64,000 bases of DNA from Acidimicrobiaceae bacterium (lineage in GTDB: Bacteria > Actinomycetota > Acidimicrobiia > Actinomarinales > Actinomarinaceae): contig JAOMBT010000004.1 in the NCBI GenBank assembly GCA_028344675.1, positions 4,692 through 68,691 of the forward strand, given 5' to 3'. Position 1 is the stretch's first letter, and each line of letters begins with the position of its first letter. Both the position numbers and the translations under genes were made by a program. Positions 5,738-53,259 of this stretch are shown here, piece after piece. The notes beneath the pieces are model-generated. The model made no database searches, was not told the DNA's origin, and saw only the letters and a list, made by a program, of their open reading frames with translations.

Positions 5738-6952
5738 ATCATTAATAATTTTTTTAGAAGTGAAATTACTATCAAAAGTTTTGTAATCAAAATTAAACTC
5801 ACCAAGTTCAAACACTTTTAAAAATTTATCAATTTCTTCATTTGATGTATTTTTGTTAATAATTTTAAAATTTTTAAATAAATCTTCAAATTCATATAAA
5901 GGGTCATCTTTAATTTCTGCAAAATGCAAGACTGGTTTACCTAGGGATATATATTCAATAACCTTACTTGGTAATTGATATTTATTAAAATTACCAATAG
6001 AGAGAAGAATATGCATTTCTTCTAACATAATCTTTGTTGCTTTATCTCTTGAAACTAAATCATAAATATTATGAATCTGATTGATACTAATTTTATTTAA
6101 GAATTTTTTTGATTCTTGGTTCGTATACCAAAAATGTTCAAATTTATCACTATAAAAATTATGGACAAGTTTTAAATAGTTTTCAGGGTCTCTAACTCTA
6201 TCAGTAAAAATTCCAAAGTATCCTATCTTCAAAGGTTTCTGAGAATAATTATAATTTATTGATTTTGAAAGTGAGTTTTTGTCAATTAACCCTATCGGGT
6301 ATCCATTCACTACTTTTGATGCTGGAATATCAAAATATTTCATATGTAATTCTGATGCTTCTTTATGTGTGAAAATAATTTTTGAAGCATTTTTATAATA
6401 TTTTTTTTCAATAAAACGATTGATAAATGAAAAAAGAAACTTGTTATTTTCAGATGAAAATTTTTTCAATGAAAAAGGATCTCCTATATCCATATACCAT
6501 TCTGCATTTAACCTTTTAGTTAGCAAGTAAGCACATACGTGAGAGGTAAAAGGAAGACTAATTGATATTATTATGTCATAGTCATCATGAATCTTTTTTT
6601 TATTTTTGTAAATTGTAAAAATCCAAAACATCGCATAGTCAGGCCAAGCAAAAGTTTTAAAAAGAAAACGATATATATGCTTTAGAATTCTAAATATCAA
6701 CTTTTTTAAGTTAGAACTTCTTGAATCATTAGAATTTTGTCGAACAGTATTAATGACACCTGATATGCTCTTATTGCCAAAATATAACACCTTGTAATTC
6801 TTAGCAGATGCTTGGGGTCTAGTACCTGAAAGAACTGTAATATCATTACCTTGATCTACAAGGTAATCAATTAATAAGCTCCACCTTGTAGTTCTCGGAC
6901 TTACATGTGGTAAAAATTGGTGTGTAACAATTAGTATTTTTTTATTTTTCAT
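5729..6952 (-). CDS. Putative glycosyltransferase (GT-B fold, GT4-like)
   Basis: N-terminus KILIVTHQFLPHVSPRTTRW and C-terminal LPSKVIEYISLGKPVLHF are typical of divergent group-1 glycosyltransferases. Soluble, located inside a glycan operon. Confidence 0.55.
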   Translation of the reverse strand: MKNKKILIVTHQFLPHVSPRTTRWSLLIDYLVDQGNDITVLSGTRPQASAKNYKVLYFGNKSISGVINTVRQNSNDSRSSNLKKLIFRILKHIYRFLFKTFAWPDYAMFWIFTIYKNKKKIHDDYDIIISISLPFTSHVCAYLLTKRLNAEWYMDIGDPFSLKKFSSENNKFLFSFINRFIEKKYYKNASKIIFTHKEASELHMKYFDIPASKVVNGYPIGLIDKNSLSKSINYNYSQKPLKIGYFGIFTDRVRDPENYLKLVHNFYSDKFEHFWYTNQESKKFLNKISINQIHNIYDLVSRDKATKIMLEEMHILLSIGNFNKYQLPSKVIEYISLGKPVLHFAEIKDDPLYEFEDLFKNFKIINKNTSNEEIDKFLKVFELGEFNFDYKTFDSNFTSKKIINDLS

Positions 6953-8318
6953 AATTTTTTAAATTTAGTCCAAAAGATATAGCTATTGCCAAATGTGTTG
7001 CCAATTCCTCTGCTTGGTAAGAATATACAAATAAAGTTGTAATAAAACTAATTAATAGATACGGCTGTAATGGCGTTGGTTTAAACACTATCTTTCTTAA
7101 AATTTCTATCAAAATATATAAAAACCAAAGTAAGCCCACCAAACCTGTAGACATTAAAATATTTGCATATAGATTATTAAATGACACCACCTGCCCAGGA
7201 TTTCTATAGATAATTTGATTTTCAACTAACTGCTTTCCAGCTTCATCAGCAGCATAAGAAAAAGCAATATTTGAATATCCATAGCCTTCTCCAAATAAGG
7301 AAAAGCCAGCATTTTGAATATATTCTAGAAGAAAAGCTGTGTTACCAAAGGCATCCAGACCTTGAGAGCTTATTTCCCTAAAGCGACCAAAGGTACCTTC
7401 TGAAAAACTAGATGAATTCTTTAACTCGTCTAACCTATCCTCTGGTGTGCAAACACACTCTAAACTATTAGCATTACAAGTATTTTCATCAGGTGGAAAT
7501 TGATATGAAAAAATACCAGAAGTAAAAATTACTAACAAGAAGATAGACAGCATTGATATAATATTTAATTCAAACTTCTTATGTAGTAGGTAAAGCAAAA
7601 CAGTAACTATGATGATTGCGGCAACAAATGCTATTATTCCAGTCAAACTTCTACTTAAAACAACACTAAAAATAGGAATTAAGGAGAGAGCATACCATAC
7701 CTTATTTTTCTTACCTAAATAAAAGAAATACGGAATGAATGGAACAGTCCATATAGCTAAGAAACTAGGTTCTCTAAAAGTTCCATAATTTCTTAAAATA
7801 TTGCATGCTCTTTGAATAGGCTGAGTCCAACCTCCAGAACCTGGTCTTGTTCTTGGAAAATCACTATAGCCATAGATATACGAAAAGTAACTAACAATAG
7901 AGAGTGTTGATATAACAATGCTAGATATCAAAAAGAATTTAAGTATTTTTTCAAAATCGTGTTTTTGTAAAATATAATTTATCGAATAAATAACAATCAA
8001 GAAAAGGAGTAATCTCAAGAGCCTTAAACTTATATATTGGAAGTAAGAGGTGCTTGCATATTTTGGAAGTATTAGATCATTAAAAAAAGATTGAATTAAA
8101 GTAATAAAAATTCCATAAATAATCCAATTTCTTATTGAGAATAAATTTAAATTAAATGTTCTTAACCCTAAAAAGTAACAAATTAAATAAACTACCGATA
8201 AAAAAGATACTCCGATCCAGTATATTGGAATATTTTGAATTGAAAAAGCATCCAGTCCCTCAAATACTAAAAATGCACTGAGTGAATATAACAATATATT
8301 TGAATATTTTAAATTCAA
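6942..8318 (-). CDS. Polytopic membrane protein, O-antigen polymerase/ligase-like (Wzy_C type)
   Basis: Ten or more hydrophobic segments. Contains an SRSLTGIIAFVAA motif, then a roughly 120-aa hydrophilic loop with CNANSLECVC, followed by FNNLYANILMSTGLVGL. Shares GTFREPSFL with the ORF at 51904-53259. TTG start overlaps the upstream stop by 4 nt. Confidence 0.6.
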   Translation of the reverse strand: MNLKYSNILLYSLSAFLVFEGLDAFSIQNIPIYWIGVSFLSVVYLICYFLGLRTFNLNLFSIRNWIIYGIFITLIQSFFNDLILPKYASTSYFQYISLRLLRLLLFLIVIYSINYILQKHDFEKILKFFLISSIVISTLSIVSYFSYIYGYSDFPRTRPGSGGWTQPIQRACNILRNYGTFREPSFLAIWTVPFIPYFFYLGKKNKVWYALSLIPIFSVVLSRSLTGIIAFVAAIIIVTVLLYLLHKKFELNIISMLSIFLLVIFTSGIFSYQFPPDENTCNANSLECVCTPEDRLDELKNSSSFSEGTFGRFREISSQGLDAFGNTAFLLEYIQNAGFSLFGEGYGYSNIAFSYAADEAGKQLVENQIIYRNPGQVVSFNNLYANILMSTGLVGLLWFLYILIEILRKIVFKPTPLQPYLLISFITTLFVYSYQAEELATHLAIAISFGLNLKNYEK

Positions 8319-9928
8319 CTTATCCTCTTGTATCCATTAGAAAATTGGACTTTAACTCCTTCATTTTCCTCACCCCATGAAGTATATTCCTCTAATTCAA
8401 CATCATTTGAGAAATCTTCAATACTTACTTTTCCATCGCTTATAGATATTTTGCGGTAGACTTTTTTTCCATTAAATTCAACAGAACCTAAAAAGCTTTC
8501 TTTATCAAAATGCAATACTTCCCCATCACTCATATAGTTCAATTTAAAACAATCAAACTCATCTTCTTTGGGAAATTTCATTTTAGGTTTTGGTCCCCAA
8601 TGGTATTCAAGTGATCTAAATCTATTTCTAATTTCAATATCATCGGTATATGTACCAGTACCAGGATCTCTAGCTATCCATTTACTGTCAGCAAAGCACT
8701 CTATTGAAAGTTGATCATAGTGAGAATGTCCACCTATTCCATTTTGACCTATAGGCCCACATCGAATACTGAAATATTCATAATCATTTCTCCATATATA
8801 AATACCAAACTCTTTAAAACTGTAACTCTTATAATCTTTTGTAAATACTTTGATTGGTTTATGAGTAACTTTATTAAAGGTATCAAACAAGGGTGGGCTA
8901 GATGTAATCTCATAGTTAAATTTTTTATACTCTTCCTCAATTTCAGAGTTAAGATAAAGACTTCCAATTAAATCAATTAACCAAGTCATTTTTAAAGGGG
9001 CTTCTTCATCAAATTTAAAGTAAAATAATCTTCCAGAATCATTATCTCCAATTTGTGATAACTCATCATTATTGATTAGTTTTGATAAAAGAAATCTGTT
9101 TGTTTTGACTATATTGTCAATTTTGGGAATAAGATTAGAGTTGATGTCTACTTCTTCAATTGCAAGCTTACAAATTATAAGAGCTTCTGTTACAAAAGCA
9201 GAATAGTGACTGGATCCCTCAAAATTAGTTCCATCTTCATAAAATTGGTTATTTAACTGAGATAAAAGTTCATTTTGATAATATTGAAATTCCTCTTTAT
9301 CATTATCAAATTTAAATGTAGCTATTGTTAGTAAAATAGATGTAAGTTCTACTAAATAATGATTACCAATAACATTTCCTTTATTTTCTAAATTAGTTGT
9401 TATAAATTCATAATGTTGACTTATATAAGAAGTCAACAAATCAATATTATTTCCAAGAATTTCACCAGATTGCTGTGAATTTTCAATTGAAATAAGTTGA
9501 AATATTAAATTAATATTTCTTATTGCAACATCCATTGGACTATTCCAATAAATTAATGGAAACTTATTAACGTCGATACTTCCTGCATTAGCTTTTTGTA
9601 AATACTGTAACCTTGATGCCTCGTAGGGAACCTTTACATCAGCCTTATTAAAAAAAGCTGGTTTTAACTTTTTATTTGAAAAATCAAAATTTGAAAATAT
9701 ATCCTCTGATATCTCGTATTTATTGGAATTCCTACCAAATATTTTTAGATTATCATTTAAATCAACTAAATATTGATCACTTGGTGTACATTCTCTAATT
9801 ATAAATTTTTGAAAATCAGAATCTCTTCGATTAAATATTCTAAAACTTGATGGGATTTCAATTTGAGGTTGAAGCAAGTTATAAATGAAGTATTTAACTT
9901 TTTTGAGAATTGTTTTTAAACTAATCAT
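8315..9928 (-). CDS. Heparinase II/III-like (alginate-lyase-fold) protein, apparently cytoplasmic
   Basis: GNHYLVEL, EGSSHYSAF and GIGGHSHYDQLS resemble the conserved N/H/Y and H-x-H-x-D blocks of the heparinase II/III family. There is no N-terminal hydrophobic signal or TM segment. Confidence 0.55.
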   Translation of the reverse strand: MISLKTILKKVKYFIYNLLQPQIEIPSSFRIFNRRDSDFQKFIIRECTPSDQYLVDLNDNLKIFGRNSNKYEISEDIFSNFDFSNKKLKPAFFNKADVKVPYEASRLQYLQKANAGSIDVNKFPLIYWNSPMDVAIRNINLIFQLISIENSQQSGEILGNNIDLLTSYISQHYEFITTNLENKGNVIGNHYLVELTSILLTIATFKFDNDKEEFQYYQNELLSQLNNQFYEDGTNFEGSSHYSAFVTEALIICKLAIEEVDINSNLIPKIDNIVKTNRFLLSKLINNDELSQIGDNDSGRLFYFKFDEEAPLKMTWLIDLIGSLYLNSEIEEEYKKFNYEITSSPPLFDTFNKVTHKPIKVFTKDYKSYSFKEFGIYIWRNDYEYFSIRCGPIGQNGIGGHSHYDQLSIECFADSKWIARDPGTGTYTDDIEIRNRFRSLEYHWGPKPKMKFPKEDEFDCFKLNYMSDGEVLHFDKESFLGSVEFNGKKVYRKISISDGKVSIEDFSNDVELEEYTSWGEENEGVKVQFSNGYKRIS

Positions 9929-11132
9929 AAGACCTTCGAAAGCTATAGGTAGTTAACCCAGCAATTACAACTTGTGAAAAAATTATCGATAATACTGCTG
10001 GATTCGTGCCAATACTGTGCATTGTAAAATATATAATATAGGAAAGTACTGAACCGAAAATGATAGTTTTTGTTAGGTTTATTTCAAAATTTAATGCTCT
10101 AGAAAAGATAATATTAATCCTGGACCAAACCATTAATGGAATACAAAATAAAATTTGATAAGTGTATTCAGATACTAAATCAAATTCATCACCCAATAAA
10201 GAAATAAATATGGTTTTTCCAAAATCTTTAAAAATAAAATAAGTTATAGGAATTATAAAAGATGCATAGAAGACCATAATTAATTTACTCCGAATAGAAC
10301 TTACTTCACTTTTATCTTTTGCCTTCGATAGTTCAGGAAACAATATATCTAAACTAGCTGCTAAAAGCTGAAAAATGATTTCTAAAATTCTTCTAGACCA
10401 TGCCAAAACTCCTAAAACAGATCCAGAATAGAACAGTCCTAATAAGACAATATCTAACTCTGAAATTAACGCACTAGAAAATGTAGTAAGAACCATTTTT
10501 TTTCCAGATTTTTGTAAATCGTTTCTCACAGGTTTTCCAGTTTTTGTTTCTAAAACTATTTCGTTTCTAGGAATAGATAAGTGAGCAACAACAAAAAAAG
10601 AGGCCAACATAAAAACTTGGAAAGCAATTAGTAAGGTGATCGAAAAACCTTGAAAAACAATTATCCATGCACCTATGCCATAAATAACAGTTCGAAAAAA
10701 TATTTGTTTAGAACTGGTCACAAAGTCACCTTTTGCTTGAAAATAAGCTAGTGCAACATGAATCATTTCATTAACCACAAATCCGGTAAGAAATAAGGCA
10801 GTCATAGAAATATCTCTTTGAAACACGAAAGTAACTGGAAATAAAATTAATAATGCTATTAAAAAATTTCTAATAATCAAAAAATAAGAATTTGAAAATA
10901 AAAATTTTGAGTATTCATTTTTTTGAGCTAAGTATTTTGTAGTTACCAATGCCAATGACATTACAGTTGCAGTACCTATAAGTACTGATAAGCTTTTAGA
11001 GGAGGCGTATTCACCATAAGTTTCAGCACCATATTCACGACTTATTATTGTAATTAAAAAGAAATTAACAATTAGGAGTGTTAATTGCATTACTGAGATG
11101 TAAACTGTATTTTGTTTCCAATTCTTTAGCAT
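9921..11132 (-). CDS. Polysaccharide flippase (Wzx-like, MOP superfamily)
   Basis: 403 aa, about 12 hydrophobic helices and no soluble domain. Positioned between the AsnB-like gene and the polymerase-like gene. Confidence 0.7.
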   Translation of the reverse strand: MLKNWKQNTVYISVMQLTLLIVNFFLITIISREYGAETYGEYASSKSLSVLIGTATVMSLALVTTKYLAQKNEYSKFLFSNSYFLIIRNFLIALLILFPVTFVFQRDISMTALFLTGFVVNEMIHVALAYFQAKGDFVTSSKQIFFRTVIYGIGAWIIVFQGFSITLLIAFQVFMLASFFVVAHLSIPRNEIVLETKTGKPVRNDLQKSGKKMVLTTFSSALISELDIVLLGLFYSGSVLGVLAWSRRILEIIFQLLAASLDILFPELSKAKDKSEVSSIRSKLIMVFYASFIIPITYFIFKDFGKTIFISLLGDEFDLVSEYTYQILFCIPLMVWSRINIIFSRALNFEINLTKTIIFGSVLSYIIYFTMHSIGTNPAVLSIIFSQVVIAGLTTYSFRRSYD

Positions 11133-12970
11133 TATTTACTCCTACTGATATGCCAATTTGCTAAATTAGATAAATACCATTTTTTTTGATAATCATCCCC
11201 TGCAAGAATTTTTTCAAGTGAACTGCTATTAAATAAACGAGTTGATGAATTAAATTCTTTTATTGAACTGTAGAAATATTCTTGATCTTTCTTAATCCAC
11301 TCTCCCACTGGTGCCCTAAACCCTTGTTTTTTTCTATTAAAAACTTTCTCAGGTATATGTTTTTTAGCTACTTTTTTAAGTAATGGTTTTGTATTTGTTT
11401 TGTTGAAAATAATCTCCTCAGGTATGGATAAAACAAATTCTATTAATTTATGGTCAAGAAATGGTACTCTTGCTTCAATTGACGATTGCATTACGAGCTT
11501 ATCCATACGCATTAATAACAATTCGGGTAGACGAATTTGTAAATCAATAAGTGTCATCCATTTAGAAAGTTTTGCATTTTTATTTGAGAAATAGTCCTTC
11601 CACTTATGATCTACATAATTAACAAGTTGAAATTCTTCAGAAACTCCTCCCATAAGAAGATTATTTATTTCCGGAATGTTAAAACCTAAAGCTCCTCCAG
11701 CAAAAGAGGTTCTATTTAGTAATATGTTTGATAAAAGATTTCCCCTATGGCTTTTGAAACTAAAAGATTTTATATCTTTACTAATAACTGGTTTTACAAA
11801 TCTATTTAACCTAATATATCTTAACCAATGTTCATAGCCATAAAATAGTTCGTCAGCACCTTCGCCAACCTGCACAACTTTTATTCCATTATTTTTAGAA
11901 GATTTTCCTAAAAAATATAGAGGTATGCCAACTTCATCACCTATTAGGTCATCTTGATAAAAAGAGTAATTATCAATTATTTTTTTAAAATCTTCATACT
12001 GAATTTTGTCTTCTATAAGTTGAATACCTATATTAGATGAAGCAAATCTTGCTTCATTAACCTCACCTTTATATCCTTCAAAGTGTTCTTCATAATCTAT
12101 ATTGAAACTTTTTAATACTGAACTTTGATTATTATTCATCAACTTTCCGATTAAAGTTGAATCTAAACCTCCCGACAAGAAAAGTCCTACTTCAACATCG
12201 CTGACTTGACGATATTCAACTGACTCTATAAGTAAGTCCTCTACTTTGCTAACTGCCTCTTTTTCACTCATATCGTTATTAATTTCAATAGAGAAAGGGT
12301 CCCAATATTTAGCTTTTTCAATACTTCCATCATTCGTAATTTTTAAATATTGTCCAGGTTCTACTTTTGAAATATATTTATTTCCTGTCTTATCAGCTGG
12401 AACACATAAGTGTCTTAAGTAAGCAATGTATGAGTCAATATCTGGTGTAAAAGTTACTATTCCAGATTTTTCTATTGCCTTTAGTTCTGAACTAAAAATA
12501 AAGCTTTTTTCATTAATTGAAAAATACAGTGGCTTAATTCCCACCCTATCTCTTGCTAAAAAAAATGACCCTTCTAATGAGTCATAAATTCCAAATGCAA
12601 ACTGTCCTCTTAGAAGATTAAGAATATCTTTGCCATATTTTATATAGCCTTCAAGGAGAACTTCTGTATCTCCACCAGTAGAAAATACAGTACCCTTTGA
12701 TTCAAGTAGTTTTCTTATTTCTTTAAAGTTATAAATTTCACCATTAAATACAATGGAAAATCTTTTGTCGATAGAGTGCATTGGCTGATTAGATCTAGAA
12801 TCTAAATCAATTATTGCTAATCTTGTATGAATTAAAGATACATTTTCATCTATATAATCAATTTTTGAAAAATCTGGACCTCTATGTTCTAGAGAATTTT
12901 TTATTATATTTGATATTTCTGGATTTATCTTTGATTTATCAAAGTTAAATATTCCAGCTATTCCACACAT
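11132..12970 (-). CDS. asnB: Asparagine synthase (glutamine-hydrolysing) family amidotransferase, glycan-locus type (WbpS-like)
   Basis: N-terminal nucleophile MCGIAGIF. PP-loop FLSGGLDST. 612 aa. Embedded in the polysaccharide operon. Confidence 0.9.
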   Translation of the reverse strand: MCGIAGIFNFDKSKINPEISNIIKNSLEHRGPDFSKIDYIDENVSLIHTRLAIIDLDSRSNQPMHSIDKRFSIVFNGEIYNFKEIRKLLESKGTVFSTGGDTEVLLEGYIKYGKDILNLLRGQFAFGIYDSLEGSFFLARDRVGIKPLYFSINEKSFIFSSELKAIEKSGIVTFTPDIDSYIAYLRHLCVPADKTGNKYISKVEPGQYLKITNDGSIEKAKYWDPFSIEINNDMSEKEAVSKVEDLLIESVEYRQVSDVEVGLFLSGGLDSTLIGKLMNNNQSSVLKSFNIDYEEHFEGYKGEVNEARFASSNIGIQLIEDKIQYEDFKKIIDNYSFYQDDLIGDEVGIPLYFLGKSSKNNGIKVVQVGEGADELFYGYEHWLRYIRLNRFVKPVISKDIKSFSFKSHRGNLLSNILLNRTSFAGGALGFNIPEINNLLMGGVSEEFQLVNYVDHKWKDYFSNKNAKLSKWMTLIDLQIRLPELLLMRMDKLVMQSSIEARVPFLDHKLIEFVLSIPEEIIFNKTNTKPLLKKVAKKHIPEKVFNRKKQGFRAPVGEWIKKDQEYFYSSIKEFNSSTRLFNSSSLEKILAGDDYQKKWYLSNLANWHISRSK

Positions 12971-13035: not shown

Positions 13036-13659
13036 ATGATGATTAAAAGATTATTCGATATAGGAACAATTTTAATTTTTTCACCAATTTTTATACCTTT
13101 AATTTTTATTATTTCATTAGTTTTATTCATAAAACAAGGTCTACCGATATTTTTTGTTCAAAATAGGGTTGGTAAAAATAATAAAATTTTCAAATTGTAC
13201 AAATTTAGAACAATGGAAGTAAGTGCTGAGGAAGATTTTCATAAATCGCACTATTTAGATTTAGCAAAAGGGAAAAATATAGAACCTAGCAACTCACCTT
13301 TAGAACCAATTCGAATAGAGAATGATGACAGGATTACATCATTAGGATCACTGCTAAGAAAAACTTCATTAGATGAACTTCCAAATATTCTTAATGTTTT
13401 AAAAGGTGATATGTCTCTTGTTGGACCAAGGCCTTTAGTTGGATATGAGTCTGATTTGTATGGAAAGTATAACTCTAAACGTAATTCTGTTCTGCCAGGA
13501 GTTACTGGTTTAGCTCAAGTACAAGGAAGATTAGATTTAAGTTTACAAGAACGTCTTTATTGGGATTTAAAATATATTGAAGATAATTCTTTTTCAGATG
13601 ACATCAAAATAATAATTAAAACTATATCCTCTGTCTTGACTAAAAAAGGTGCGAATTAA
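13036..13659 (+). CDS. Small initiating phosphoglycosyl transferase (bacterial sugar transferase, PglC/WbaP C-terminal type)
   Basis: A single N-terminal re-entrant helix, then KLYKFRTM and SLDELPNILNVLKGDMSLVGPRP, the Bac_transf signature. Confidence 0.9.
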   Translation: MMIKRLFDIGTILIFSPIFIPLIFIISLVLFIKQGLPIFFVQNRVGKNNKIFKLYKFRTMEVSAEEDFHKSHYLDLAKGKNIEPSNSPLEPIRIENDDRITSLGSLLRKTSLDELPNILNVLKGDMSLVGPRPLVGYESDLYGKYNSKRNSVLPGVTGLAQVQGRLDLSLQERLYWDLKYIEDNSFSDDIKIIIKTISSVLTKKGAN

Positions 13660-14828
13660 ATCAATTCCATATATTGCTTAACTACCAAATCCACATTGGC
13701 AAAATGGTTATTCATTTCTGATATATTTGAATAAATTTGTTTTAAAAAACTATCATCTTCTAGCTTATTTAATTTAATATCAATATCTTGGTCATTTGGA
13801 TCAATATTGATACCTAGTTGAAATTTATCTATAAATTTAGCCAAACTAGATTCAGGATGTGAATAACCAATTAAGATTTTATTCATTTTTAAATAGTCGA
13901 ATGTTTTACCTGGAAAGCCTTCTACAGTAATTTTTGATGATAAAGATACAAGAGCATAAGGAATCTCACGTGTTAAATAGACTAATTTTTCTCTAGAAAC
14001 ATACGAGTTAACTTCTACATGTGGACTACTCCGTTCACAAATCTTTTCATACTGACTGCCAGAACCGAAAATAGTTAATTTATAATTTTTCCTTGATTTT
14101 GAAAAGGTATCTATAAATGATTCAATATTTTGAGGAGTACCTAAGTTTCCAGCATACATAATATTTTTTGAAATTTTTTTACATTTTAGAACTTCGGGCT
14201 CGTTTGCAAAATGATAAATGACCTTAATTTTATCTTTTTGTATATTTCTATTTTCAATTAAGAATTTTTTAAGTTGATCTGAATTAGCAACCACATAATC
14301 TATATTTTTTAAACAATAATTATCAATCCATTTAAAAATTCTGTGTAAAAAATTGAAGTTTAATTCGTTTAATTTATCAGCTATTTCGGGATAAAGTTCC
14401 CATACAGAATATATTGTATTTTTTCTCAATATCTTTTTAGTAAATATGGCAATTAAATTCATAGTTGGTGGGTAGCTAAATATAAAAATTGTATCAAAAT
14501 TTTTCCTATTCTTGACTAAGTAGACTAAAGATTTTTTATGATAACTAACCCACTGCATAATTCTTTTAGTTCTACTAAAAGATCTCTTTGAAGAAGACAA
14601 GTGTGTAATTTTCACACCATTATATAAAGAAACATAAGTGTTTCTTGAAACTTTTGTTAATCCTTCTTCAGCAAAGTCATCTGAGTCGAAACGGTATTGT
14701 GGAGTAGATGCTAAAATCTCAATATCAATATTATTATCTTTAAATTTAGATGCAATATCAGCAACTAACTTACCTGTAGATACTTGATCTGGTGGAATTG
14801 TTAAAGAATGAAATAAAACTTTTTTCAT
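13656..14828 (-). CDS. Glycosyltransferase family 4 (WbuB-like, as found after L-FucNAc-type pathways)
   Basis: N-terminus MKKVLFHSLTIPPDQVSTGKLVADIA is typical of WbuB-type GT4. It directly follows a 2-epimerase gene with a 4-nt overlap. Confidence 0.7.
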   Translation of the reverse strand: MKKVLFHSLTIPPDQVSTGKLVADIASKFKDNNIDIEILASTPQYRFDSDDFAEEGLTKVSRNTYVSLYNGVKITHLSSSKRSFSRTKRIMQWVSYHKKSLVYLVKNRKNFDTIFIFSYPPTMNLIAIFTKKILRKNTIYSVWELYPEIADKLNELNFNFLHRIFKWIDNYCLKNIDYVVANSDQLKKFLIENRNIQKDKIKVIYHFANEPEVLKCKKISKNIMYAGNLGTPQNIESFIDTFSKSRKNYKLTIFGSGSQYEKICERSSPHVEVNSYVSREKLVYLTREIPYALVSLSSKITVEGFPGKTFDYLKMNKILIGYSHPESSLAKFIDKFQLGINIDPNDQDIDIKLNKLEDDSFLKQIYSNISEMNNHFANVDLVVKQYMELI

Positions 14829-15979
14829 TCTTTAAATGAATTACTTATATCAAAAGAGTAATCAGATGGTTTATGTTTTTTAAAATCATTGCTATTACAA
14901 AGTTCAATTAAATCTTCGACAATAATTTTTGAAGAGTTTCCATCTCCAAAAGGATTCTCCCAATTTTTCTCTAAAGATTTAACATCATTCAATATTTTAT
15001 TAAAATCTATATTTTTATTAGTAGGATCAAATTTAATAGACGCTTTTACATCATATACTTCTGGCCTTTCAGTTGAGTATCTCATTTGAATTGAAGGGAT
15101 ACCCATAATGCATGCCTCTTCCACAACTGTACCGGAATCAGTTGCAACAAAATTAGAATTTTTTAATAAGTACATAAATTCTAAGTAACCTATTGGATCA
15201 ATTACTTTAATATTATCATTTAACTTAAGATCAGAATTCTCAAGAATTTCTTGGGTTTTATAACCCATTGGAAAAACAACATTTTCATCGTTTATAGAAT
15301 TTAAAAGGCTAATTATATTTGTAAAACTTTCAATATCTAAAATATTTTCTCTTCTATGACTAGTTACTAAGACATAATCATTTTCAATAATATTTTGTAC
15401 TTCATTATCCAAATAATTTAAGCCAGAGTCAAAATGCTTAGTATTTTCATTGATAATATCAACAATAGGATTTCCGGTTACTTTTATAATATTTTTACTT
15501 ATCCCTTCATTTAGCCCTTGTTGCCTGTAGCTATTTAAGTACGCATATATTCTGTCGGAGAGGTGATCTATAACTGTTCTATATTTTTCCTCTGGCATTC
15601 GCCAATCATACGACCTCATACAGCCTTCTATATGAACTATAGGTATGTTATGTTGTGCTGCTGCAATTGAACCCATTACTGTATTGGTATCTCCTAAAAA
15701 AACAACAGCTTTATATTTATGTTTTTCAAAATGATTAAACAAATTTGTAATTGTTGAGGATACTATAGTTGCATCACTTTTTGTATCGACTGTAAATTCA
15801 AAATTAGGTATTGGCACATTTAATTGCTGAAAAAAAGTATCTTTCATATTTTCTGAATAATGCTGGCCGGACCAAATGAAATCAAATTCAATTTCATTTT
15901 GATTGTTTAACAATTTTAAAATTTTACTGGCCCTTATAACATCTGGTCTAATGCCTAAAACTATTGCTAAGTCTTTCAT
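14825..15979 (-). CDS. UDP-N-acetylglucosamine 2-epimerase family (FnlC/CapG-like); second paralog in the window
   Basis: VLGIRPDVIRASKIL, HIEGCMRS, MPEEKYR and DSGTVVEEA are Epimerase_2 motifs. Confidence 0.85.
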   Translation of the reverse strand: MKDLAIVLGIRPDVIRASKILKLLNNQNEIEFDFIWSGQHYSENMKDTFFQQLNVPIPNFEFTVDTKSDATIVSSTITNLFNHFEKHKYKAVVFLGDTNTVMGSIAAAQHNIPIVHIEGCMRSYDWRMPEEKYRTVIDHLSDRIYAYLNSYRQQGLNEGISKNIIKVTGNPIVDIINENTKHFDSGLNYLDNEVQNIIENDYVLVTSHRRENILDIESFTNIISLLNSINDENVVFPMGYKTQEILENSDLKLNDNIKVIDPIGYLEFMYLLKNSNFVATDSGTVVEEACIMGIPSIQMRYSTERPEVYDVKASIKFDPTNKNIDFNKILNDVKSLEKNWENPFGDGNSSKIIVEDLIELCNSNDFKKHKPSDYSFDISNSFKE

Positions 15980-15980
15980 A

Positions 15981-27569: not shown

Positions 27570-27570
27570 T

Positions 27571-31659: not shown

Positions 31660-31715
31660 AATTTATCTTTTTATATCTTTTAATTAACTCCTATGATTAT
31701 AGTTGTTGTTTGGAA

Positions 31716-35238: not shown

Positions 35239-35255
35239 TTGTTTTTCTAAGCAAG

Positions 35256-35623: not shown

Positions 35624-35667
35624 ATTCCTCCATTCAATTCAATTATAGTGACATTTTAAATGTAAAG

Positions 35668-35740
35668 CTCCGAGGGTGGGACTTGAACCCACAACCAACG
35701 GATTAACAGTCCGCTGCTCTGCCAATTGAGCTACCTCGGA
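35668..35740 (-). tRNA. tRNA-Asn (anticodon GTT)
   Basis: The reverse complement is TCCGAGGTAGCTCAATTGGCAGAGCAGCGGACTGTTAATCCGTTGGTTGTGGGTTCAAGTCCCACCCTCGGAG. It has acceptor TCCGAGG/CCTCGGA, anticodon loop CT-GTT-AA and T-loop GGTTCAAGTCC. Confidence 0.92.
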
Positions 35741-45732: not shown

Positions 45733-45963
45733 ATGGCAAATATTAATTCACAAAAGAAAAGAATCCGACAAGATTCCAAAAGAAATGTTAGAAACAAATC
45801 ACTGAAAAGTGAATTAAAAACAACTTTGAAAATAGTAGAAAATGAAGAAGTAACTCCTGAAATTAAAAGTCAAGCTTTGAAATCATTAGATATTGCCTAT
45901 TCAAAAGGTATTATTAACAAAAAATTTAGAGATAGAAATAAGTCAAAGATATCAAACTTGTAA
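45733..45963 (+). CDS. rpsT: 30S ribosomal protein S20
   Basis: MANINSQKKRIRQDSKRNVRNKS. AAAGG Shine-Dalgarno upstream. Divergent from lepA, as in Actinobacteria. Confidence 0.9.
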   Translation: MANINSQKKRIRQDSKRNVRNKSLKSELKTTLKIVENEEVTPEIKSQALKSLDIAYSKGIINKKFRDRNKSKISNL

Positions 45964-46611
45964 CTTTTGCTTAATAGCAATAATAAATCTTTTTGAATTT
46001 TCTTGGTTGTAAGAAGCCTTTAACATTTTTTCTTCTAATTTATAAACCAAATTAATTGCTTCATCAAGATTATTTGCACTAAGTTTTTTTAAAAGACCAT
46101 CAGCTTTTTCATATTTATAATCTTTTTTTTCATTTAATATTTTAGATACCACATCAGCATTTACATTAAGTAATAACTTAAGTCTAAAAACCTCTTTAGT
46201 AAAAAAATTAAAGAAATTTCTAAAATTATTTTCTTTATTGGAAAAGTAAAATAACAAATCAGAGTCTAAATTTTTGTTTTTATTAAAAATGATATTTGAT
46301 AAATCCCAAGGGTACTTTTCTTTTACTATAGCGGAATTATGAACAACAGTTAAATTTTCAATATTTTGAAATTTTTGAAGATTAGATTTTTTAATTTGAA
46401 AAATATATCTTAAAGAAAAATTATATTGATTATCTTGAAGATTTTTATAAGTAAAAAAACTATCGTACACAAACTTATATAAAGGATCTTCAAACAATGA
46501 ACTTTGTTCATTTAAATTAAGACTATCTTTAGATATTTTTTTATATTGTAAATCTAAATTTAAATTCTCCAAATTATCAATGAGACTATCTGTAACAATT
46601 AAATAGGTCAT
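45952..46611 (-). CDS. Hypothetical protein; possibly a miniaturised DNA polymerase III delta subunit (call rests on position and weak motifs)
   Basis: It sits in the holA slot next to rpsT. It shows weak delta-like patterns: YLIVTDSLIDNL, SSLFEDPLYKFVYD, and C-terminal LDEAINLVYKLEE. It is only 219 aa. Confidence 0.35.
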   Translation of the reverse strand: MTYLIVTDSLIDNLENLNLDLQYKKISKDSLNLNEQSSLFEDPLYKFVYDSFFTYKNLQDNQYNFSLRYIFQIKKSNLQKFQNIENLTVVHNSAIVKEKYPWDLSNIIFNKNKNLDSDLLFYFSNKENNFRNFFNFFTKEVFRLKLLLNVNADVVSKILNEKKDYKYEKADGLLKKLSANNLDEAINLVYKLEEKMLKASYNQENSKRFIIAIKQKLQV

Positions 46612-50196: not shown

Positions 50197-50847
50197 TCAC
50201 CTATCAAACCTTGGCGAGATCCATGTTGATTTATAAGGAAACACAAAATCTTTTTTAAAATCTTGATATGAAAGTGGTGTGAACTGAATAATTTGTGAGT
50301 TATTTTTTAAATTATTAGGTGTAGGTATAATCATTTTTTGCTGCATCAAAATTTTTTTGTATTTATATAAATCCCTAAGATTCAGAATATTTTTTGAAAA
50401 ATATTTTTGTCTATTAAGACTTATAAAAAAAGTTAACTCTTCTTGAAGTTTGTTTGGAGCAAATTTGTGATCTTCATAAATTTTATTAGTAAATTCATCT
50501 TTATCAACCATCAATTGACAGTTGTAGGAGGTTATAGAAACTTTTCTTATATCTATTAAAACTACATCCATATCTTCATCAATTTTATTATCTTTTATAA
50601 AGTTAAACCTGTGATGACCATCTAGAATAAATAATTCATCTTTAATTTCAACTTTGTTATCATCTAAAATGAAATCGACTCCTAGAACTAGGTTTGAATT
50701 TTTAACAATATCATAAGTAATATTGCTATTCTCATTTGTTTCTTCATGGGGATATATATTATTTAATCGAAATACATTAAGTTTGGTTTTATAAGCTTCT
50801 AATGCGTTATTTTCAAATTCTATTTTTTCTACATTTCTAATTATCAT
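50197..50847 (-). CDS. Hypothetical protein, half-size DUF1015-like
   Basis: LDGHHRF and the C-terminal FPYKSTWISPRF resemble the ADGHHR and P-x-KST-y-F-x-PK blocks I recall for DUF1015. 216 aa. Its start shares one nucleotide with the serC stop. Confidence 0.35.
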   Translation of the reverse strand: MIIRNVEKIEFENNALEAYKTKLNVFRLNNIYPHEETNENSNITYDIVKNSNLVLGVDFILDDNKVEIKDELFILDGHHRFNFIKDNKIDEDMDVVLIDIRKVSITSYNCQLMVDKDEFTNKIYEDHKFAPNKLQEELTFFISLNRQKYFSKNILNLRDLYKYKKILMQQKMIIPTPNNLKNNSQIIQFTPLSYQDFKKDFVFPYKSTWISPRFDR

Positions 50848-51914
50848 TATTTGTAATTAACAAAACTATCCAGAAAAGAAATAAAATCTTCCATCATTAA
50901 TAAATCGATACTGTTGTAATTACTTACCCTAATTCCACCAACACTTCTATGGCCATTAAGACCAATGTATCCATTCTTTACACAGCTATCTAAAAAAATT
51001 GGAGTTTGCTTTTCGTCTTTAAAATTAAATACAATATTAGACAAACTCCTATACTTTTCAGGAACATCAAGTGAGAACACGGATTCATTTTTATCTAAAT
51101 ATTTATAAAGTTTTTCAGCTTTATTTTTATTTACTCTTTCAATTTCTTTGACTCCGCCTTTATCCTCAATCCAATTTAAAACTTTTAACATCACAAATAT
51201 TGAAAAAGTTGGAGGTGTGTTAAAACTTGAATTTTTATTAATATGGTTATGAGAATCTAAATAAGAAGTTAGGATATTATCTTCTAAGAAACCTTTCTTA
51301 ATTACACATATTGTAACACCAGGAATACCAAGATTTTTTTGCGCTCCAGCAAAAACATAGGAGATATTATCCCACTCAAATTCGTAAGAACAAATATCTG
51401 AAGACATATCTATTATCAAATTTTTATTTTTAAATAAACCAAAATCTCTAACCTGCACACCCTCAATTGTTTCATTAGAAGTAAGATAAATATAATCTTC
51501 ACGTTCTTGCTGTAAGCTCTTAAAAGTATTTTCAGAAAAGTTTTTTTCAAGAAAGTAGTGTGGAATTTTATCATCAAAATATTTTTGAAAGTCGTTGAAA
51601 GTTTTTCTACCCCATGTTCCTGATAGAAAAAATAATATATTTCCATTTAAACTTGGTTTATTTGAAGGAATAAAGGTATTTTGAAAAGTCGCACCGCCCT
51701 GAAGTAGGATTATGTCATATTCTTCTGGTAAATTAAGTAATTTAGCAATCTTTGATTTTACCTCATTGACTATTTCTTGAAAAGCTTCACTGCGATGAGA
51801 GAGTTCTAAAATTGAGTATCCTAAATTCTTATAATCTTTTATGTCATCACTAATTTGATTTATAACAATTTCTGGAATCTTAGATGGACCAGCAGAAAAA
51901 TTTTTAATCTTCAT
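50847..51914 (-). CDS. serC: Phosphoserine aminotransferase
   Basis: NFSAGPS, QGGATFQ and NxGxxGVT-type blocks. I moved the start from 51953 to ATG 51914 (MKIKNFSAGPS). Confidence 0.9.
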   Translation of the reverse strand: MKIKNFSAGPSKIPEIVINQISDDIKDYKNLGYSILELSHRSEAFQEIVNEVKSKIAKLLNLPEEYDIILLQGGATFQNTFIPSNKPSLNGNILFFLSGTWGRKTFNDFQKYFDDKIPHYFLEKNFSENTFKSLQQEREDYIYLTSNETIEGVQVRDFGLFKNKNLIIDMSSDICSYEFEWDNISYVFAGAQKNLGIPGVTICVIKKGFLEDNILTSYLDSHNHINKNSSFNTPPTFSIFVMLKVLNWIEDKGGVKEIERVNKNKAEKLYKYLDKNESVFSLDVPEKYRSLSNIVFNFKDEKQTPIFLDSCVKNGYIGLNGHRSVGGIRVSNYNSIDLLMMEDFISFLDSFVNYK

Positions 51915-53259
51915 TATCCACCATTGTAAACACAAGTCCAAGACACAAACCAAAAATAGGTAATAAATCCTCTATCGAAGAAAGTGATATTGTAAATACA
52001 AGCATTGATACATATAAAAAACGTTTGAAGTTGTCAAATAACAAATAAATCAGTAACAAAAGAATGGCTAATAGGTAGAGAAACCCTATTGAGAAAAAGT
52101 TAAATAAAAAATTATTTTGAATATTAATATTTTCATAAGTTAAGAAATACCTTCCAGTACCGAAAGAATTGGAAAGATATTTTATTTTTAAATATTCTGG
52201 AAGTGTTCTATTTGTTAAATACATTTCATCTTGTACATTCTTTGCAAGAAATTTAGTGTATTTTTGATTAGTTCCTTGAAATCCAAATCCTATATTATGT
52301 TTCATATATTCAATAGAGAATCTAAATATATCACTTCTTTCTTGATCATCAAAAATAATTTCATTAATGTCATAATCTATTTCAAGATTGTTATTACCTC
52401 CTTCAATACTTTCAGGGGAAGAATCTAGAGTGTCACTTGTTGAATTTGAAATCTGTGGACATTCAATATTTTTAGGGCTTATATCGCATTCTTTAATTGG
52501 AATAAAGAAAGATATAAGAAATAATGTAACAAAAAAAATTATTTTATAACTAACTTTGTAAGTAATAATTTGAATAAATGAAAATGCAATAACAAGAATA
52601 AGTGCATATTCACTTTTTGTTAGTCCAAAAGCCAAACCTGATAATATGTAGAAATAAATTGGTTGTACTTTTTTAAAATGTAAAGCAAGAAAAACTGGAA
52701 AAAGTAAAGATACTAAAAAAACTGGCTCCCTGAATGTTCCTACCATTCTGTGGCTACCAGAAATCCAAAAATTAACTTGAGCATCAAAACCTAAAATTCC
52801 TGTTCCTGGCCTATTTCTGGTGGGTTCAAAAAAATTAAATAATTGAGCTAAGAAGGTATATATGCAAATAGATAATAAGAGAACATAAATTTTTTCTAAA
52901 GCATTAATTATTTCATAATTAAATCTGGACTTAGAAGTCACATAGAAGATAAAAATAAATGATAGGAAACTAAAAACTCTTAATAAGGTATAAATTTCAC
53001 CATCAATTAAATCACTAATAACTTGATACTTAAAAAAGGTTGGTAATAAAGCAACAAATACTCCTAATTTGATTAGAGATGGTATTTTCATATTTTCATA
53101 AAAATATAAAATAACAAAAAATAAAACTGTTAAGGAACCGCCAATCCAATTCAAAGGTATATTAAAAAGTTGATATGCATCTAGAAAACTTAGAAATATT
53201 GAAACAATTAATAAACTTTCAATTAATGTTTTAAATTTATATTTATTTTTTAACATCAA
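51904..53259 (-). CDS. Polytopic membrane protein, O-antigen polymerase/ligase-like (Wzy_C type); paralog of 6942-8318
   Basis: Ten or more hydrophobic segments. Shares PxRxRPGxG...GTFREPVFL with the 6942-8318 product. It has a hydrophilic loop with KECDISPKNIEC. Confidence 0.55.
   Translation of the reverse strand: MMLKNKYKFKTLIESLLIVSIFLSFLDAYQLFNIPLNWIGGSLTVLFFVILYFYENMKIPSLIKLGVFVALLPTFFKYQVISDLIDGEIYTLLRVFSFLSFIFIFYVTSKSRFNYEIINALEKIYVLLLSICIYTFLAQLFNFFEPTRNRPGTGILGFDAQVNFWISGSHRMVGTFREPVFLVSLLFPVFLALHFKKVQPIYFYILSGLAFGLTKSEYALILVIAFSFIQIITYKVSYKIIFFVTLFLISFFIPIKECDISPKNIECPQISNSTSDTLDSSPESIEGGNNNLEIDYDINEIIFDDQERSDIFRFSIEYMKHNIGFGFQGTNQKYTKFLAKNVQDEMYLTNRTLPEYLKIKYLSNSFGTGRYFLTYENINIQNNFLFNFFSIGFLYLLAILLLLIYLLFDNFKRFLYVSMLVFTISLSSIEDLLPIFGLCLGLVFTMVDNED

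Follow-up and report, generated by a model that had tools for sequence, protein, structure and literature searches.

Four conserved WaaL/Wzy-fold membrane enzymes of two subfamilies in a candidate wall-polymer region of Candidatus Actinomarina

The window analysed here is a 64-kb stretch of a genome of Candidatus Actinomarina, a very small marine actinobacterium; the whole assembly spans 710 kb. As a sequence-only reading of this DNA had reported, it contains four polytopic open reading frames of 458, 387, 812 and 451 aa, all on the minus strand, which we refer to as P0001 to P0004. Its description of the genome as Gram-positive-type agrees with the presence of an LCP gene inside the window, and its count of two Wzx-type flippase genes (9921-11132 and 53291-54568) is correct for the window. 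The genes considered below are as follows.

2423-4763, minus strand: UDP-sugar dehydrogenase and UDP-GlcNAc 2-epimerase (UDP-ManNAcA-type supply)
5729-6952, minus strand: GT-B-like glycosyltransferase, 407 aa (faint Glyco_transf_4 match, E 0.009), P0001 cassette partner
6942-8318, minus strand: P0001, FREP-type WaaL/Wzy-fold enzyme, 458 aa, candidate repeat-unit polymerase of pathway 1
8315-9928, minus strand: heparinase II/III-like protein (Hepar_II_III_C, E 2.2e-11), P0001 cassette partner
9921-11132, minus strand: Wzx-type flippase 1 (Polysacc_synt_3, E 3.3e-9), overlapping both adjacent genes
11132-12970, minus strand: AsnB-type glutamine amidotransferase (Asn_synthase, E 6e-65; TIGR01536, 422 bits), probably for uronamide formation
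13036-13659, plus strand: small polyprenyl-phosphate phosphoglycosyl transferase, initiator 1 (Bac_transf, E 3.4e-58)
14825-18287, minus strand: SDR, cupin, RmlD-like reductase and 2-epimerase (6-deoxy-hexosamine-type route)
19380-20543, minus strand: P0002, canonical HN-type Wzy_C protein, 387 aa, candidate ligase-like transferase
26637-28776, minus strand: UDP-glucose 6-dehydrogenase and UDP-glucuronate decarboxylase-like SDR
29929-30963, plus strand: WecA/MraY-type polyprenyl-phosphate HexNAc-1-P transferase, initiator 2 (Glycos_transf_4, E 4.3e-33; TIGR02380 wecA, E 8.6e-35, under the cut-off)
31710-32828, plus strand: LCP (LytR-CpsA-Psr) phosphotransferase (PF03816, E 8.7e-23), convergent with P0003
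32800-35238, minus strand: P0003, HN-type Wzy_C protein, 812 aa, with an extracytoplasmic insertion of ~470 aa
49041-50847, minus strand: GT4 glycosyltransferase and a 216-aa protein without family (P0004 operon; syntenic in six other species)
51904-53259, minus strand: P0004, divergent FREP-type paralogue of P0001, 451 aa, candidate polymerase of a second pathway
53291-54517, minus strand: Wzx-type flippase 2 (Polysacc_synt, E 4.3e-10; likely start M18)

The gene junctions of the operon asnB-wzx-heparinase-like-P0001-GT overlap, and both ends of P0001, start and stop, overlap adjacent genes. Flippase 2, whose reading frame as listed (to 54568) reaches into a tRNA-Ala gene at 54526-54599, lies directly upstream of P0004, and each of the two FREP-type genes is beside or near a Wzx gene. 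P0002 sits within an operon of sugar-synthesis genes, while P0003 adjoins the only LCP gene in the genome, the product of which carries a Ser/Thr-rich linker after its membrane anchor. Altogether the window supplies two UDP-sugar dehydrogenases, a UXS-like SDR, an amidotransferase, two initiators (Bac_transf and WecA-type) and many GT4 genes. A search for a TagF-type teichoic-acid polymerase found none, and none of 7 genomes yielded a Wzz/PCP-type chain-length regulator. FtsW and RodA are encoded elsewhere in the genome, so the four proteins are not its peptidoglycan polymerases.

The sequence-only reading had assigned all four proteins to the O-antigen ligase/polymerase superfamily, and this stands if fringe members are admitted, since only P0002 (41.1 bits) passes the Pfam cut-off of 31.7 bits for Wzy_C (PF04932). 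P0001 is borderline and slightly under the cut-off (27.2 bits, E 3.9e-6), reaching 30.7 bits in a six-frame search and 32.5 bits with neighbouring segments. The match of P0003 is partial (20 bits) because its insertion splits the domain, and P0004, which has no Pfam match, joins the superfamily only through its paralogue P0001. That paralogy, also proposed earlier, is supported by BLASTP (25% identity, E 2e-11) and by an hhalign comparison of the two orthologue alignments (probability 99.7%, 410 columns). The P0002 and P0003 families are likewise related (hhalign 99%), and links between the two pairs are weak (84% and 68%). The four genes make up two ancient pairs, one of FREP type and one of HN type. 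Their clustering is not due to chance, because a six-frame search of the whole 710-kb assembly with PF04932 gave no match other than the three genes of this window that Pfam detects. A fifth Wzy_C family, separate and patchily distributed, occurs elsewhere in half of the genomes.

The four proteins are polytopic enzymes of the GT-C(B) fold, of the WaaL/Wzy kind. The AF2 model of P0001 (pTM 0.80, with pLDDT <50 for the catalytic loop at residues 150-183) has a single real match in a fold search of the PDB, WaaL 7TPG_B (prob 1.00, TM 0.47-0.51). In Foldseek the P0003 model (pLDDT 79.7) also matches WaaL (prob 0.80), and its insertion is modelled as a helical Cys-rich subdomain (258-480) followed by a beta-sandwich (491-709) resembling concanavalin-type lectins (prob 0.8-0.93). 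It had been considered earlier that these proteins might prove to be unrelated transporters. They are not: the fold search returned the WaaL ligase 7TPG as the only membrane-fold match for both models. Sequence and profile searches against PDB chains gave no significant match, nor did hhalign against E. coli WaaL, and the residue equivalences with WaaL given below come from motif matching.

The motifs first recognised by the sequence-only reading are present and conserved among orthologues. P0001 and P0004 share GTFREP(S/V)FL, which is conserved among orthologues, and R-x-R-P-G-x-G, the leading Pro in P0001 standing immediately before the first Arg. Their Cys-containing loops are CNANSLECVC and KECDISPKNIEC, respectively, with C281/C288/C290 and C258/C267 invariant. 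In the P0001 family R99, R158, R176, E183 and S224 are invariant and E437/E438 near-invariant, while in P0004 the invariant residues are R148, R150, R171, E178 and C258/C267. Either N or Q occupies the position of the ligase His (N381 in P0001), and the equivalent of R215 is not conserved in the wider family. The HN pair shows R156, R205, R246, R259 and H310-N311 as invariant in P0002, and R153, R205, R258 and H726-N727 in P0003. Both match the R215-type (T-x-S-R) and H338-N-X9-G-X2-4-G motifs of E. coli WaaL; in P0002, TYSR205SS and H310-N-X9-G-X2-G correspond to TQTR215AT and H338-N-X9-G-X2-G of WaaL. The second of these is known as the GN2 motif (PMC12502699). AF2 helices and the positive-inside rule predict that the conserved residues and Cys pairs lie in outside loops.

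Orthologues of P0001, P0002, P0003 and P0004 were found in 12/12, 11/12, 12/12 and 12/12 high-quality genomes of the order, with gene order and spacing preserved, a second genus included. This retention of order and spacing indicates that none of them is a strain-variable polymerase. In all of 7 genomes there is a single LCP gene, located beside the P0003 orthologue wherever P0003 is intact. Losses are seen in the G048 clade, which lacks P0002 and P0004 while keeping both Wzx genes and both initiators, and P0004 is a pseudogene in G018. These losses fit poorly with a scheme of one polymerase and one ligase per pathway.

The FREP family, a small one of about 295 clusters, is scattered over phyla, with P0001-like genes in Firmicutes, Bdellovibrionota, Acidobacteriota, Planctomycetota, Proteobacteria and Gemmatimonadota. 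Among 31 loci of other phyla, the P0001-like gene has a heparinase-like homologue within 1.5 kb at 14 and a homologue of the 407-aa GT-B protein nearby at 16; RmlD-like and 2-epimerase homologues also occur near such genes. At a 13-kb locus of Desulfoscipio the P0001-like gene is the sole Wzy_C-type gene among the 9 ORFs scanned. As a rule, polymerase families track the sugars that they join (PMC10920833), and the persistence of the cassette across phyla fits this rule. The literature consulted contains no description of the signature [HQ]RAxG[TS]FREP or of its fixed partnership with a heparinase II/III-like protein. The Actinomarina set comprises four old enzymes with the O-antigen ligase/polymerase fold, conserved across the order and divided between two subfamilies; the subfamilies, the order-wide synteny and the His-less cassette subfamily spanning phyla had all escaped the earlier reading.

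That reading had argued that an organism without LPS has no WaaL-type need. The premise fails because Wzy_C enzymes are normal in Gram-positives, as in TuaE of B. subtilis. CAZy GT121 and Wzy_C polymerases occur in Gram-positives (PMC10920833), and the lipoteichoic-acid ligase of pneumococci, TacL, is a Wzy_C protein (PMC5727136). WaaL itself (GT121; 7TPG is from Cupriavidus metallidurans) is matched by the 12-TM GT-C(B) fold of the P0001 and P0003 models, by the motifs of P0002 and P0003 and by the predicted outward-facing position of the conserved residues; the Actinomarina enzymes differ in belonging to an actinobacterium without a lipid A-core acceptor, in the missing His and unconserved first Arg of the FREP family, and in the lectin-like insertion of P0003. 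In Streptococcus pneumoniae, an Und-PP-linked polymer flipped by Wzx is transferred to a glycolipid by TacL (RafX) and to peptidoglycan by LCP proteins (PMC5727136). Judged by described function, TacL offers a parallel in a Gram-positive Wzy_C protein with LCP acting alongside, and it can be dispensed with for growth, as P0002 can in one Actinomarina clade, although its substrate is a phosphocholine teichoic acid and the Actinomarina polymer looks uronic-acid based. The FREP pair resembles, in described residue features, the GT-C1 inverting polymerases GT125-GT129, which have 1-2 conserved Arg plus Glu/Asp, no ligase His and outward conserved residues, each family being associated with similar sugars across Gram-positive and Gram-negative hosts (PMC10920833).

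Two further systems resemble the region as a whole. The tuaABCDEFGH operon of B. subtilis makes teichuronic acid, a phosphate-free anionic wall polymer, with a Bac_transf initiator, a Wzx-type flippase, GT4/GT2 enzymes, a UDP-sugar dehydrogenase and the Wzy_C polymerase TuaE. It has one Wzy_C gene and the chain-length protein TuaF, whereas in Actinomarina there are four such genes and a Wzz-type protein was not detected, and it belongs to the phosphate-starvation regulon, whereas the Actinomarina region appears to be permanent core genome. The cap5/cap8 clusters of Staphylococcus aureus share a CapE/F/G-like 6-deoxy-L-hexosamine route, CapO/P-like UDP-ManNAcA synthesis, a Wzx flippase, a Wzy polymerase and LCP anchoring, but have one polymerase, a CapA/B chain-length system and no heparinase-like or AsnB-like gene.

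We consider it somewhat probable that the four proteins are Und-PP-glycan polymerases and ligase-like transferases for phosphate-free uronic-acid wall polymers. The colinear 50-kb region would encode Wzx-dependent synthesis of uronic-acid-rich, teichuronic-acid-like polymers, and the Und-PP donor, the nature of the polymers and that of the acceptors given here are those that seem most likely. P0001 and P0004 would most likely be repeat-unit polymerases, given the nearby Wzx genes, the absent ligase His and the invariant Arg/Arg/Arg/Glu set (R99, R158, R176 and E183 in P0001 numbering); in inverting polymerase families of the same clan Glu or Asp replaces the His (PMC10920833). P0002 and P0003 would most likely transfer the finished Und-PP-linked glycan to a non-peptidoglycan acceptor, either a membrane glycolipid (cf. 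TacL) or another glycan chain, which the concanavalin-like domain of P0003 may hold, and the single LCP enzyme beside P0003 would couple polymer to peptidoglycan. The division into FREP-type polymerases and HN-type ligases is a more tentative proposal, one we would put at a little below even. Ligases cannot be told from polymerases by the HN motif, which many type-B Wzy polymerases of pneumococci also carry (PMC12502699). The absence of Wzz/PCP proteins, unusual for Wzy-dependent polymerisation, counts against the polymerase reading, and some or all of the four may transfer single oligosaccharide blocks instead of polymerising.

Of the roles suggested earlier, several polymerases and ligation to non-LPS acceptors are both still live. 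All four might be Wzy repeat-unit polymerases, for different polymers or for the linkages of a block co-polymer, with LCP as sole anchor and no ligase. Polymerase is the usual annotation of Wzy_C proteins in Gram-positive glycan clusters, proven pneumococcal Wzy polymerases are among the HN-motif proteins (PMC12502699), and the many GT4 genes could assemble more than two repeat units. We nevertheless regard this as unlikely: there are four enzymes to only two Wzx flippases and two initiating transferases, chain-length regulators are absent, the order-wide conservation is unlike that of typical fast-swapping Wzy genes, and the patchy fifth Wzy_C family stands apart from the four. Nor do the four behave as ordinary Wzy proteins each paired with its own flippase, an outcome foreseen in the sequence-only reading, as no more than two have a Wzx gene beside or near them.

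Less probable again is that P0002 and/or P0003 are PglL/TfpO-like O-oligosaccharyltransferases glycosylating Ser/Thr-rich exported proteins. A Wzy_C domain and a critical His are also features of such enzymes, a large predicted extracytoplasmic binding domain is present in P0003, and the adjoining LCP protein carries a Ser/Thr-rich linker; the lectin-like fold of the insertion suggests a sugar ligand instead, and none of the PglL_A and Wzy_C_2 models of Pfam or the PglL/TfpO models of NCBIfam matched the four proteins at E <= 1, leaving the PglL-like role proposed earlier without positive evidence. We know of no PglL-type enzyme in Actinobacteria, in which protein O-glycosylation is carried out by PMT-type GT-C enzymes. 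That the FREP pair are IctB-like transporters or scaffolds sharing only the fold is very improbable. In its favour are the absent canonical His and a faint match to IctB (E 3.4e-4; 19.7 bits, cut-off 366), the only one that P0001 has in NCBIfam. Against it, IctB, whose transport function is unproven, belongs to the Wzy_C family too. Moreover, both here and in six other phyla the genes are closely linked to those for Wzx, GT and sugar-nucleotide enzymes, and the invariant Arg/Glu of the predicted outside loop recall diphosphate-binding GT-C enzymes (PMC10920833).

No wall chemistry has been reported for Actinomarina (PMC7771536). The reading of these genes as enzymes of uronic-acid wall polymers describes no new kind of system, and its value lies in the annotation of an uncharacterised cell wall.

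The Actinomarina genome (~1 Mb) carries about 45 kb of conserved, rather than strain-variable, envelope-glycan region, in which four WaaL/Wzy-fold enzymes of two old subfamilies are embedded together with two initiators, two flippases, genes that supply uronic acids and amino sugars, and one LCP gene. The four open reading frames (P0001 to P0004) noted in the sequence-only reading are all present on the minus strand, and are arranged with their neighbors as follows.

12970 to ~5729, minus strand: operon 1, with overlapping junctions, in the order AsnB-type amidotransferase, Wzx-type flippase (Wzx 1, 9921-11132), heparinase II/III-like protein, P0001, 407-aa GT-B-like protein; a UDP-GlcNAc 2-epimerase and a UDP-sugar dehydrogenase follow downstream
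6942-8318, minus strand: P0001, 458 aa
13036-13659: small Bac_transf initiating transferase, which operon 2 faces
21253 down to 13656: operon 2, with polyprenyl-phosphate sugar synthase-like GT2, P0002, GT4, SDR, cupin, RmlD-like reductase, 2-epimerase, GT4
19380-20543, minus strand: P0002, 387 aa
21338-35238: two SDRs, four GT4, UDP-glucose dehydrogenase, UXS-like decarboxylase, WecA-type initiator, nucleotidyltransferase, LCP, P0003
32800-35238, minus strand: P0003, 812 aa, convergent with the LCP gene (31710-32828)
51904-53259, minus strand: P0004, 451 aa, in a unit that follows 14 kb of housekeeping genes and comprises Wzx (Wzx 2), P0004, class-V aminotransferase, a 216-aa protein and GT4

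Against the Pfam Wzy_C model (PF04932; gathering threshold 31.7 bits), protein searches placed P0002 above the cut-off (41.1 bits) and P0001 slightly under it (27.2 bits, E 3.9e-6), and a six-frame genome search left P0001 borderline (30.7 bits, or 32.5 bits with neighboring segments). P0003 gave a partial match (20-24 bits) because an insertion splits the domain, and no Wzy_C match was found for P0004 in Pfam. Within the wider family sharing the GTFREP(S/V)FL motif of P0001 and P0004 (FREP type), 18 of 32 members reach Wzy_C at E <= 0.01, but only one of 13 P0004 orthologues does. None of the four proteins reached a curated ligase, polymerase or O-oligosaccharyltransferase model in NCBIfam, where only faint matches to IctB and EpaQ were seen. 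When the entire 710-kb assembly was searched in six frames with PF04932, the only matches were those genes of the window that Pfam detects, three in number; hence the clustering of these genes is not a matter of chance.

P0001 and P0004, previously proposed to be clear paralogs, are indeed true paralogues (BLASTP, 25% identity, E 2e-11), and the motifs and cysteine-containing loops quoted for them were found and are conserved across orthologues. P0002 and P0003, which carry the His-Asn motif of WaaL (HN type), are related as well (26% identity, E 6e-10). When orthologues of each protein were collected from other species within the order, comparison of their profiles (hhalign) joined the P0001 and P0004 families at 99.7% probability over 410 columns and the P0002 and P0003 families at 99%, with weak links across the pairs (P0001-P0003, 84%; P0002-P0004, 68%).

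The two subfamilies also differ in their conserved residues. The HN type keeps G-R-x-x-G-F-Q-x-x-G-P-N, T-(Y/F)-S-R and H-N-X9-G-X2-3-G, with R156, R205, R246, R259 and H310 invariant in P0002 and R153, R205, R258 and H726 invariant in P0003. For comparison, WaaL of E. coli K-12 (from MG1655) has TQTR215AT and H338-N-X9-G-X2-G, the latter being the 'GN2' motif of Wzy_C proteins (PMC12502699), and the catalytic set of CmWaaL consists of R191, R265 and H313 (PMC10920833). Motif matching to E. coli WaaL gives as Arg-Arg-His candidates R205, R246 or R259, and H310 in P0002, and R205, R258 and H726 in P0003. In the FREP pair the His position is occupied by N381 (P0001) and Q381 (P0004), so the Arg-Arg-His set of WaaL is incomplete, and the equivalent of the first Arg (WaaL R215) is unconserved across the wider FREP family. 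This family, approximately 295 clusters (at 50% identity) recovered at E <= 1e-3 when 1.84 billion representative proteins were searched with a profile, has the signature [HQ]RAxG[TS]FREP; R99, R158, R176, E183 and S224 (P0001 numbering) are invariant, and E437 and E438 nearly so. Inverting polysaccharide polymerase families in the CAZy clan of WaaL have one or two Arg and a Glu/Asp that replaces the His (PMC10920833), and the FREP-type residues fit this pattern. The P0001 and P0002 family profiles had no match to any PDB sequence even at E <= 10, and the mapping of residues to WaaL is therefore based on motifs and fold search. Alignment of the four family profiles with E. coli WaaL (hhalign) was not significant, and was sensible only in the local T-x-S-R segment.

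In the AlphaFold2 model of P0001 (pTM 0.80) the membrane helices are predicted with confidence and the loop at 150-183 is ill-defined; the model's sole real PDB neighbor is the WaaL ligase 7TPG_B (probability 1.00, TM 0.47-0.51; all others TM < 0.2). The P0003 model (mean pLDDT 79.7) shows the same 12-helix core with two insertions in the large outside loop, namely a Cys-rich helical subdomain (~258-480) and a beta-sandwich (491-709). In Foldseek, this core resembles WaaL (probability 0.80) and the sandwich resembles concanavalin-type legume lectins (probability 0.8-0.93, TM 0.30-0.37 of target); the E-values for P0003 are weak (0.07-0.3), which is normal when a query has several domains. The models give a WaaL-type polytopic fold (GT-C subclass B) for P0001 and P0003, and the same fold follows for P0004 and P0002 through the hhalign links to their partner families. 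Predicted helices and the positive-inside rule would place all conserved residues and conserved cysteines in outside loops, and an outward position of the conserved residues has been reported for all such families (PMC10920833). The sandwich of P0003 is kept in all orthologues, and a 'short form' (660-690 aa) without residues ~310-480 occurs in many species. In a homologous-protein search, all matches of P0001 and of the C-terminal half of P0003 were close orthologues of the Actinomarina type (for the latter, 255 matches in 5.8 billion proteins), showing that the P0003 architecture is lineage-restricted.

Gene context was examined in the window and in seven genomes of the order (G000, G002, G059, G048, G043, G053 and G018). 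P0001 and P0004 have a Wzy-type context, with a Wzx gene and an initiating phosphoglycosyl transferase in the glycan cluster: for P0001, Wzx lies one gene upstream in the operon and Bac_transf is 5 kb off, and for P0004 a Wzx gene is directly upstream. Neither P0002 nor P0003 is paired with a Wzx gene. The SDR, cupin, RmlD-like reductase and 2-epimerase of operon 2 make up a 6-deoxy-hexosamine-type route. Each of the seven genomes contains one LCP gene, the convergent neighbor of the P0003 orthologue wherever that orthologue is intact; in the LCP protein, the membrane anchor is followed by a segment rich in Ser and Thr. No TagF-type glycerol/ribitol-phosphate (teichoic-acid) polymerase (PF04464) and no Wzz/PCP-type chain-length regulator (PF02706, 0/7) was found in these genomes, and both models detected their controls; a divergent chain-length regulator may have escaped the model. 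The longest reading frame of Wzx 2 (53291-54568) starts inside tRNA-Ala(GGC) (54526-54599), and translation probably begins instead at the Met at 54517, giving 408 aa. The 216-aa protein (50197-50847) belongs to no Pfam or NCBIfam family, and its synteny between the GT4 and aminotransferase genes of the P0004 operon is kept.

Orthologues were sought in 65 genomes of the order, 12 of them high-quality. They were found for P0001 in 54 genomes (38-75% identity), for P0004 in 55 (29-52%), for P0002 in 48 (36-59%) and for P0003 in 52 (37-63%), including all 12 high-quality genomes, or 11 in the case of P0002, and all four are present in the second genus of the family. The order and spacing of the four genes are retained, for example at 386, 404-406, 417 and 428 kb of contig 1 in G002. 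The window (28% G+C, on contig 25 of a genome that is 71% complete) is colinear from 4.8 to 55 kb in six other species by gene-by-gene tblastn, with only three lineage-specific genes: GT4 18305-19453, GT2 20540-21253 and GT4 24447-25592. This GT2, directly upstream of P0002, resembles polyprenyl-phosphate sugar synthases (AglJ, PpgS, ArnC-like), and looks like a lineage-specific addition because it is missing in the six other species. Such synthases usually supply GT-C(A) enzymes, not Wzy_C proteins. A 219-aa ORF (45952-46611) in the lepA-leuS interval has 38-41% identity in six of the six species compared.

The order is known to have a strain-variable glycan island (PMC7771536; bioRxiv 10.64898/2026.04.03.716425). 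Identity of the window with this published flexible island (fGI1) was rejected, as its gene content and order are shared by species at 35-70% protein identity. Hence, given the colinearity across species and the mere three lineage-specific genes, the region is conserved core machinery, distinct from the strain-variable glycan island. In the published island, tRNAs are insertion points; here, tRNA-Met and tRNA-Asn (35255-35329, 35667-35740) lie within the 526 bp that separate P0003 from dnaG, and the region is nonetheless conserved. Some genomes have one to three extra Wzy_C matches outside the region. A fifth Wzy_C-type family, present in 32 of 65 genomes (e.g., G048:C2:85942-87261, corresponding to L126:7942-9264, 58 bits against Pfam) and absent from the window's genome and its nearest relatives, probably belongs to the variable glycan repertoire. 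Losses also occur within the region. In G048 (C1, loci L036-L038), P0002 and P0004 are both lost, with the flanking genes now adjacent and the neighbors kept, and judging from the search tables its relatives G037, G038 and G041 probably share both losses; the P0004 copy of G018 is a pseudogene, interrupted by nine stop codons (G018:C1:431975-432655). Several genes of G059:C1:598001-646000 (L033-L035), including the LCP and P0003 orthologues, are stop-broken or truncated, which looks like assembly or sequencing error.

The FREP type extends well beyond this order. A scan for its signature, in which each prokaryotic species was represented by a single genome, recovered P0001-like genes in Firmicutes (Desulfoscipio, Desulfallas and Pelotomaculum), in Bdellovibrionales, Acidobacteriota, Planctomycetota and Thermodesulfobacteriota, and in Ramlibacter, Devosia, Rhizomicrobium and Longimicrobium. 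Among 31 loci, homologues of the 407-aa GT-B protein were found near the P0001-like gene in 16, of the heparinase-like protein in 14 (always within 1.5 kb), of the RmlD-like reductase in 12, of the 2-epimerase in eight and of AsnB in five. In Desulfoscipio the gene order is heparinase-like, P0001-like, GT4, GT4, RmlD-like and CapE-like dehydratase, and the P0001-like gene is the sole Wzy_C-type gene among nine ORFs scanned in a 13-kb locus; in D. geothermicus, transglutaminase-like and radical SAM genes lie just upstream of the cassette (L068:1501-3553). Membership of a polymerase family has been found to follow the sugars at the ends that are joined (PMC10920833), and since the same sugar-supply genes accompany it across phyla, the P0001-like enzyme behaves like a polymerase family. 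For the heparinase II/III-like protein of the window (8315-9928), no obvious signal peptide is seen, and its gene shows translational coupling to Wzx and P0001, a partnership that recurs across phyla; within this biosynthetic operon it may act as an epimerase-like or a lyase-like enzyme, and a literature search returned nothing relevant on a heparinase II-like gene paired with Wzy.

The earlier premise that an organism without LPS has no need of WaaL-type enzymes was mistaken, the family being ordinary in Gram-positive wall-polymer and capsule pathways, and it is very probable that the four proteins are Und-PP-glycan transferases of envelope-polymer assembly. Two lipid-linked oligosaccharides would be assembled on polyprenyl phosphate and flipped by the two Wzx proteins, after which the adjacent FREP-type enzymes would polymerise the flipped units and LCP would attach the polymers to peptidoglycan. 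Such polymers would contain no phosphate and would owe their negative charge to uronic acids, which would suit a phosphorus-poor habitat. The teichuronic acid of B. subtilis is likewise phosphate-free and anionic through uronic acids. The HN-type enzymes, with their WaaL-like Arg/His set, may pass finished glycan to another acceptor, either a membrane glycolipid or a second glycan chain, and the lectin-like domain of P0003 may hold that acceptor. Pneumococcal TacL transfers polymer to a membrane glycolipid, while LCP enzymes serve the wall (PMC5727136). Any ligase activity would need an acceptor other than lipid A-core, because the organism is an actinobacterium, its genome encodes an LCP enzyme, and no outer-membrane evidence has been reported for the order (PMC7771536).

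We would like to emphasize that the specific division into FREP polymerases and HN ligases is tentative, with somewhat less than an even chance of being correct: the Wzx neighbors and residue pattern of the FREP pair are consistent with it, but no chain-length regulator was found, the HN motif occurs in polymerases too (PMC12502699), and one clade has lost one gene of each type. A broader joint reading is unlikely. It would make the FREP family an unrecognised CAZy-level Und-PP-glycan polymerase family, in which the FREP Glu would serve as the catalytic base, replacing the canonical His/Asp/Glu position, and which would work only as a module together with a dedicated GT-B and a heparinase II/III-like enzyme of the cytoplasm; two TacL-like ligases of Actinomarina, one fused to an order-restricted concanavalin-like acceptor-binding domain, would then join this module in making both a wall-bound and a lipid-anchored, phosphate-free 'teichuronic' polymer. 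If true, the envelope would be built permanently to spare phosphorus in oligotrophic oceans. PglL-like protein O-glycosylation, suggested earlier from the shared domain, found no positive support, as none of the four proteins matched PglL_A/Wzy_C_2-type regions or O-OTase models in Pfam or NCBIfam at E <= 1. Peptidoglycan polymerases of the SEDS type (GT119; FtsW/RodA/SpoVE family) were rejected, with no PF01098 match for the four and two bona fide SEDS genes elsewhere in each of the seven genomes.

Envelope-polymer assembly by Und-PP-glycan transferases remains the preferred reading. Few free-living bacteria in the sea are as small or as abundant as Actinomarina, and no chemical analysis of its cell wall is available (PMC7771536). 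The inventory of the region, with four WaaL/Wzy-fold enzymes, one LCP and no teichoic-acid polymerase or chain-length regulator, provides a testable picture of this wall, in which uronic-acid, phosphate-free polymers would be assembled outside the membrane. New here are the two-by-two structure and its conservation across the order, a subfamily, so far unnamed, that lacks the His and has a constant heparinase-like partner, and a lineage-restricted, ligase-like protein with a concanavalin-like insertion that adjoins the sole LCP gene. The core machinery is now set apart from the flexible glycan island, which is thought to be diversified by phage pressure, and the unnamed FREP and heparinase-like module, recurrent across phyla, may be of interest for the classification and engineering of polysaccharide polymerases. 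Current understanding is not overturned by these results; rather, the known logic of Wzx/Wzy and ligase pathways is extended to an unstudied lineage.
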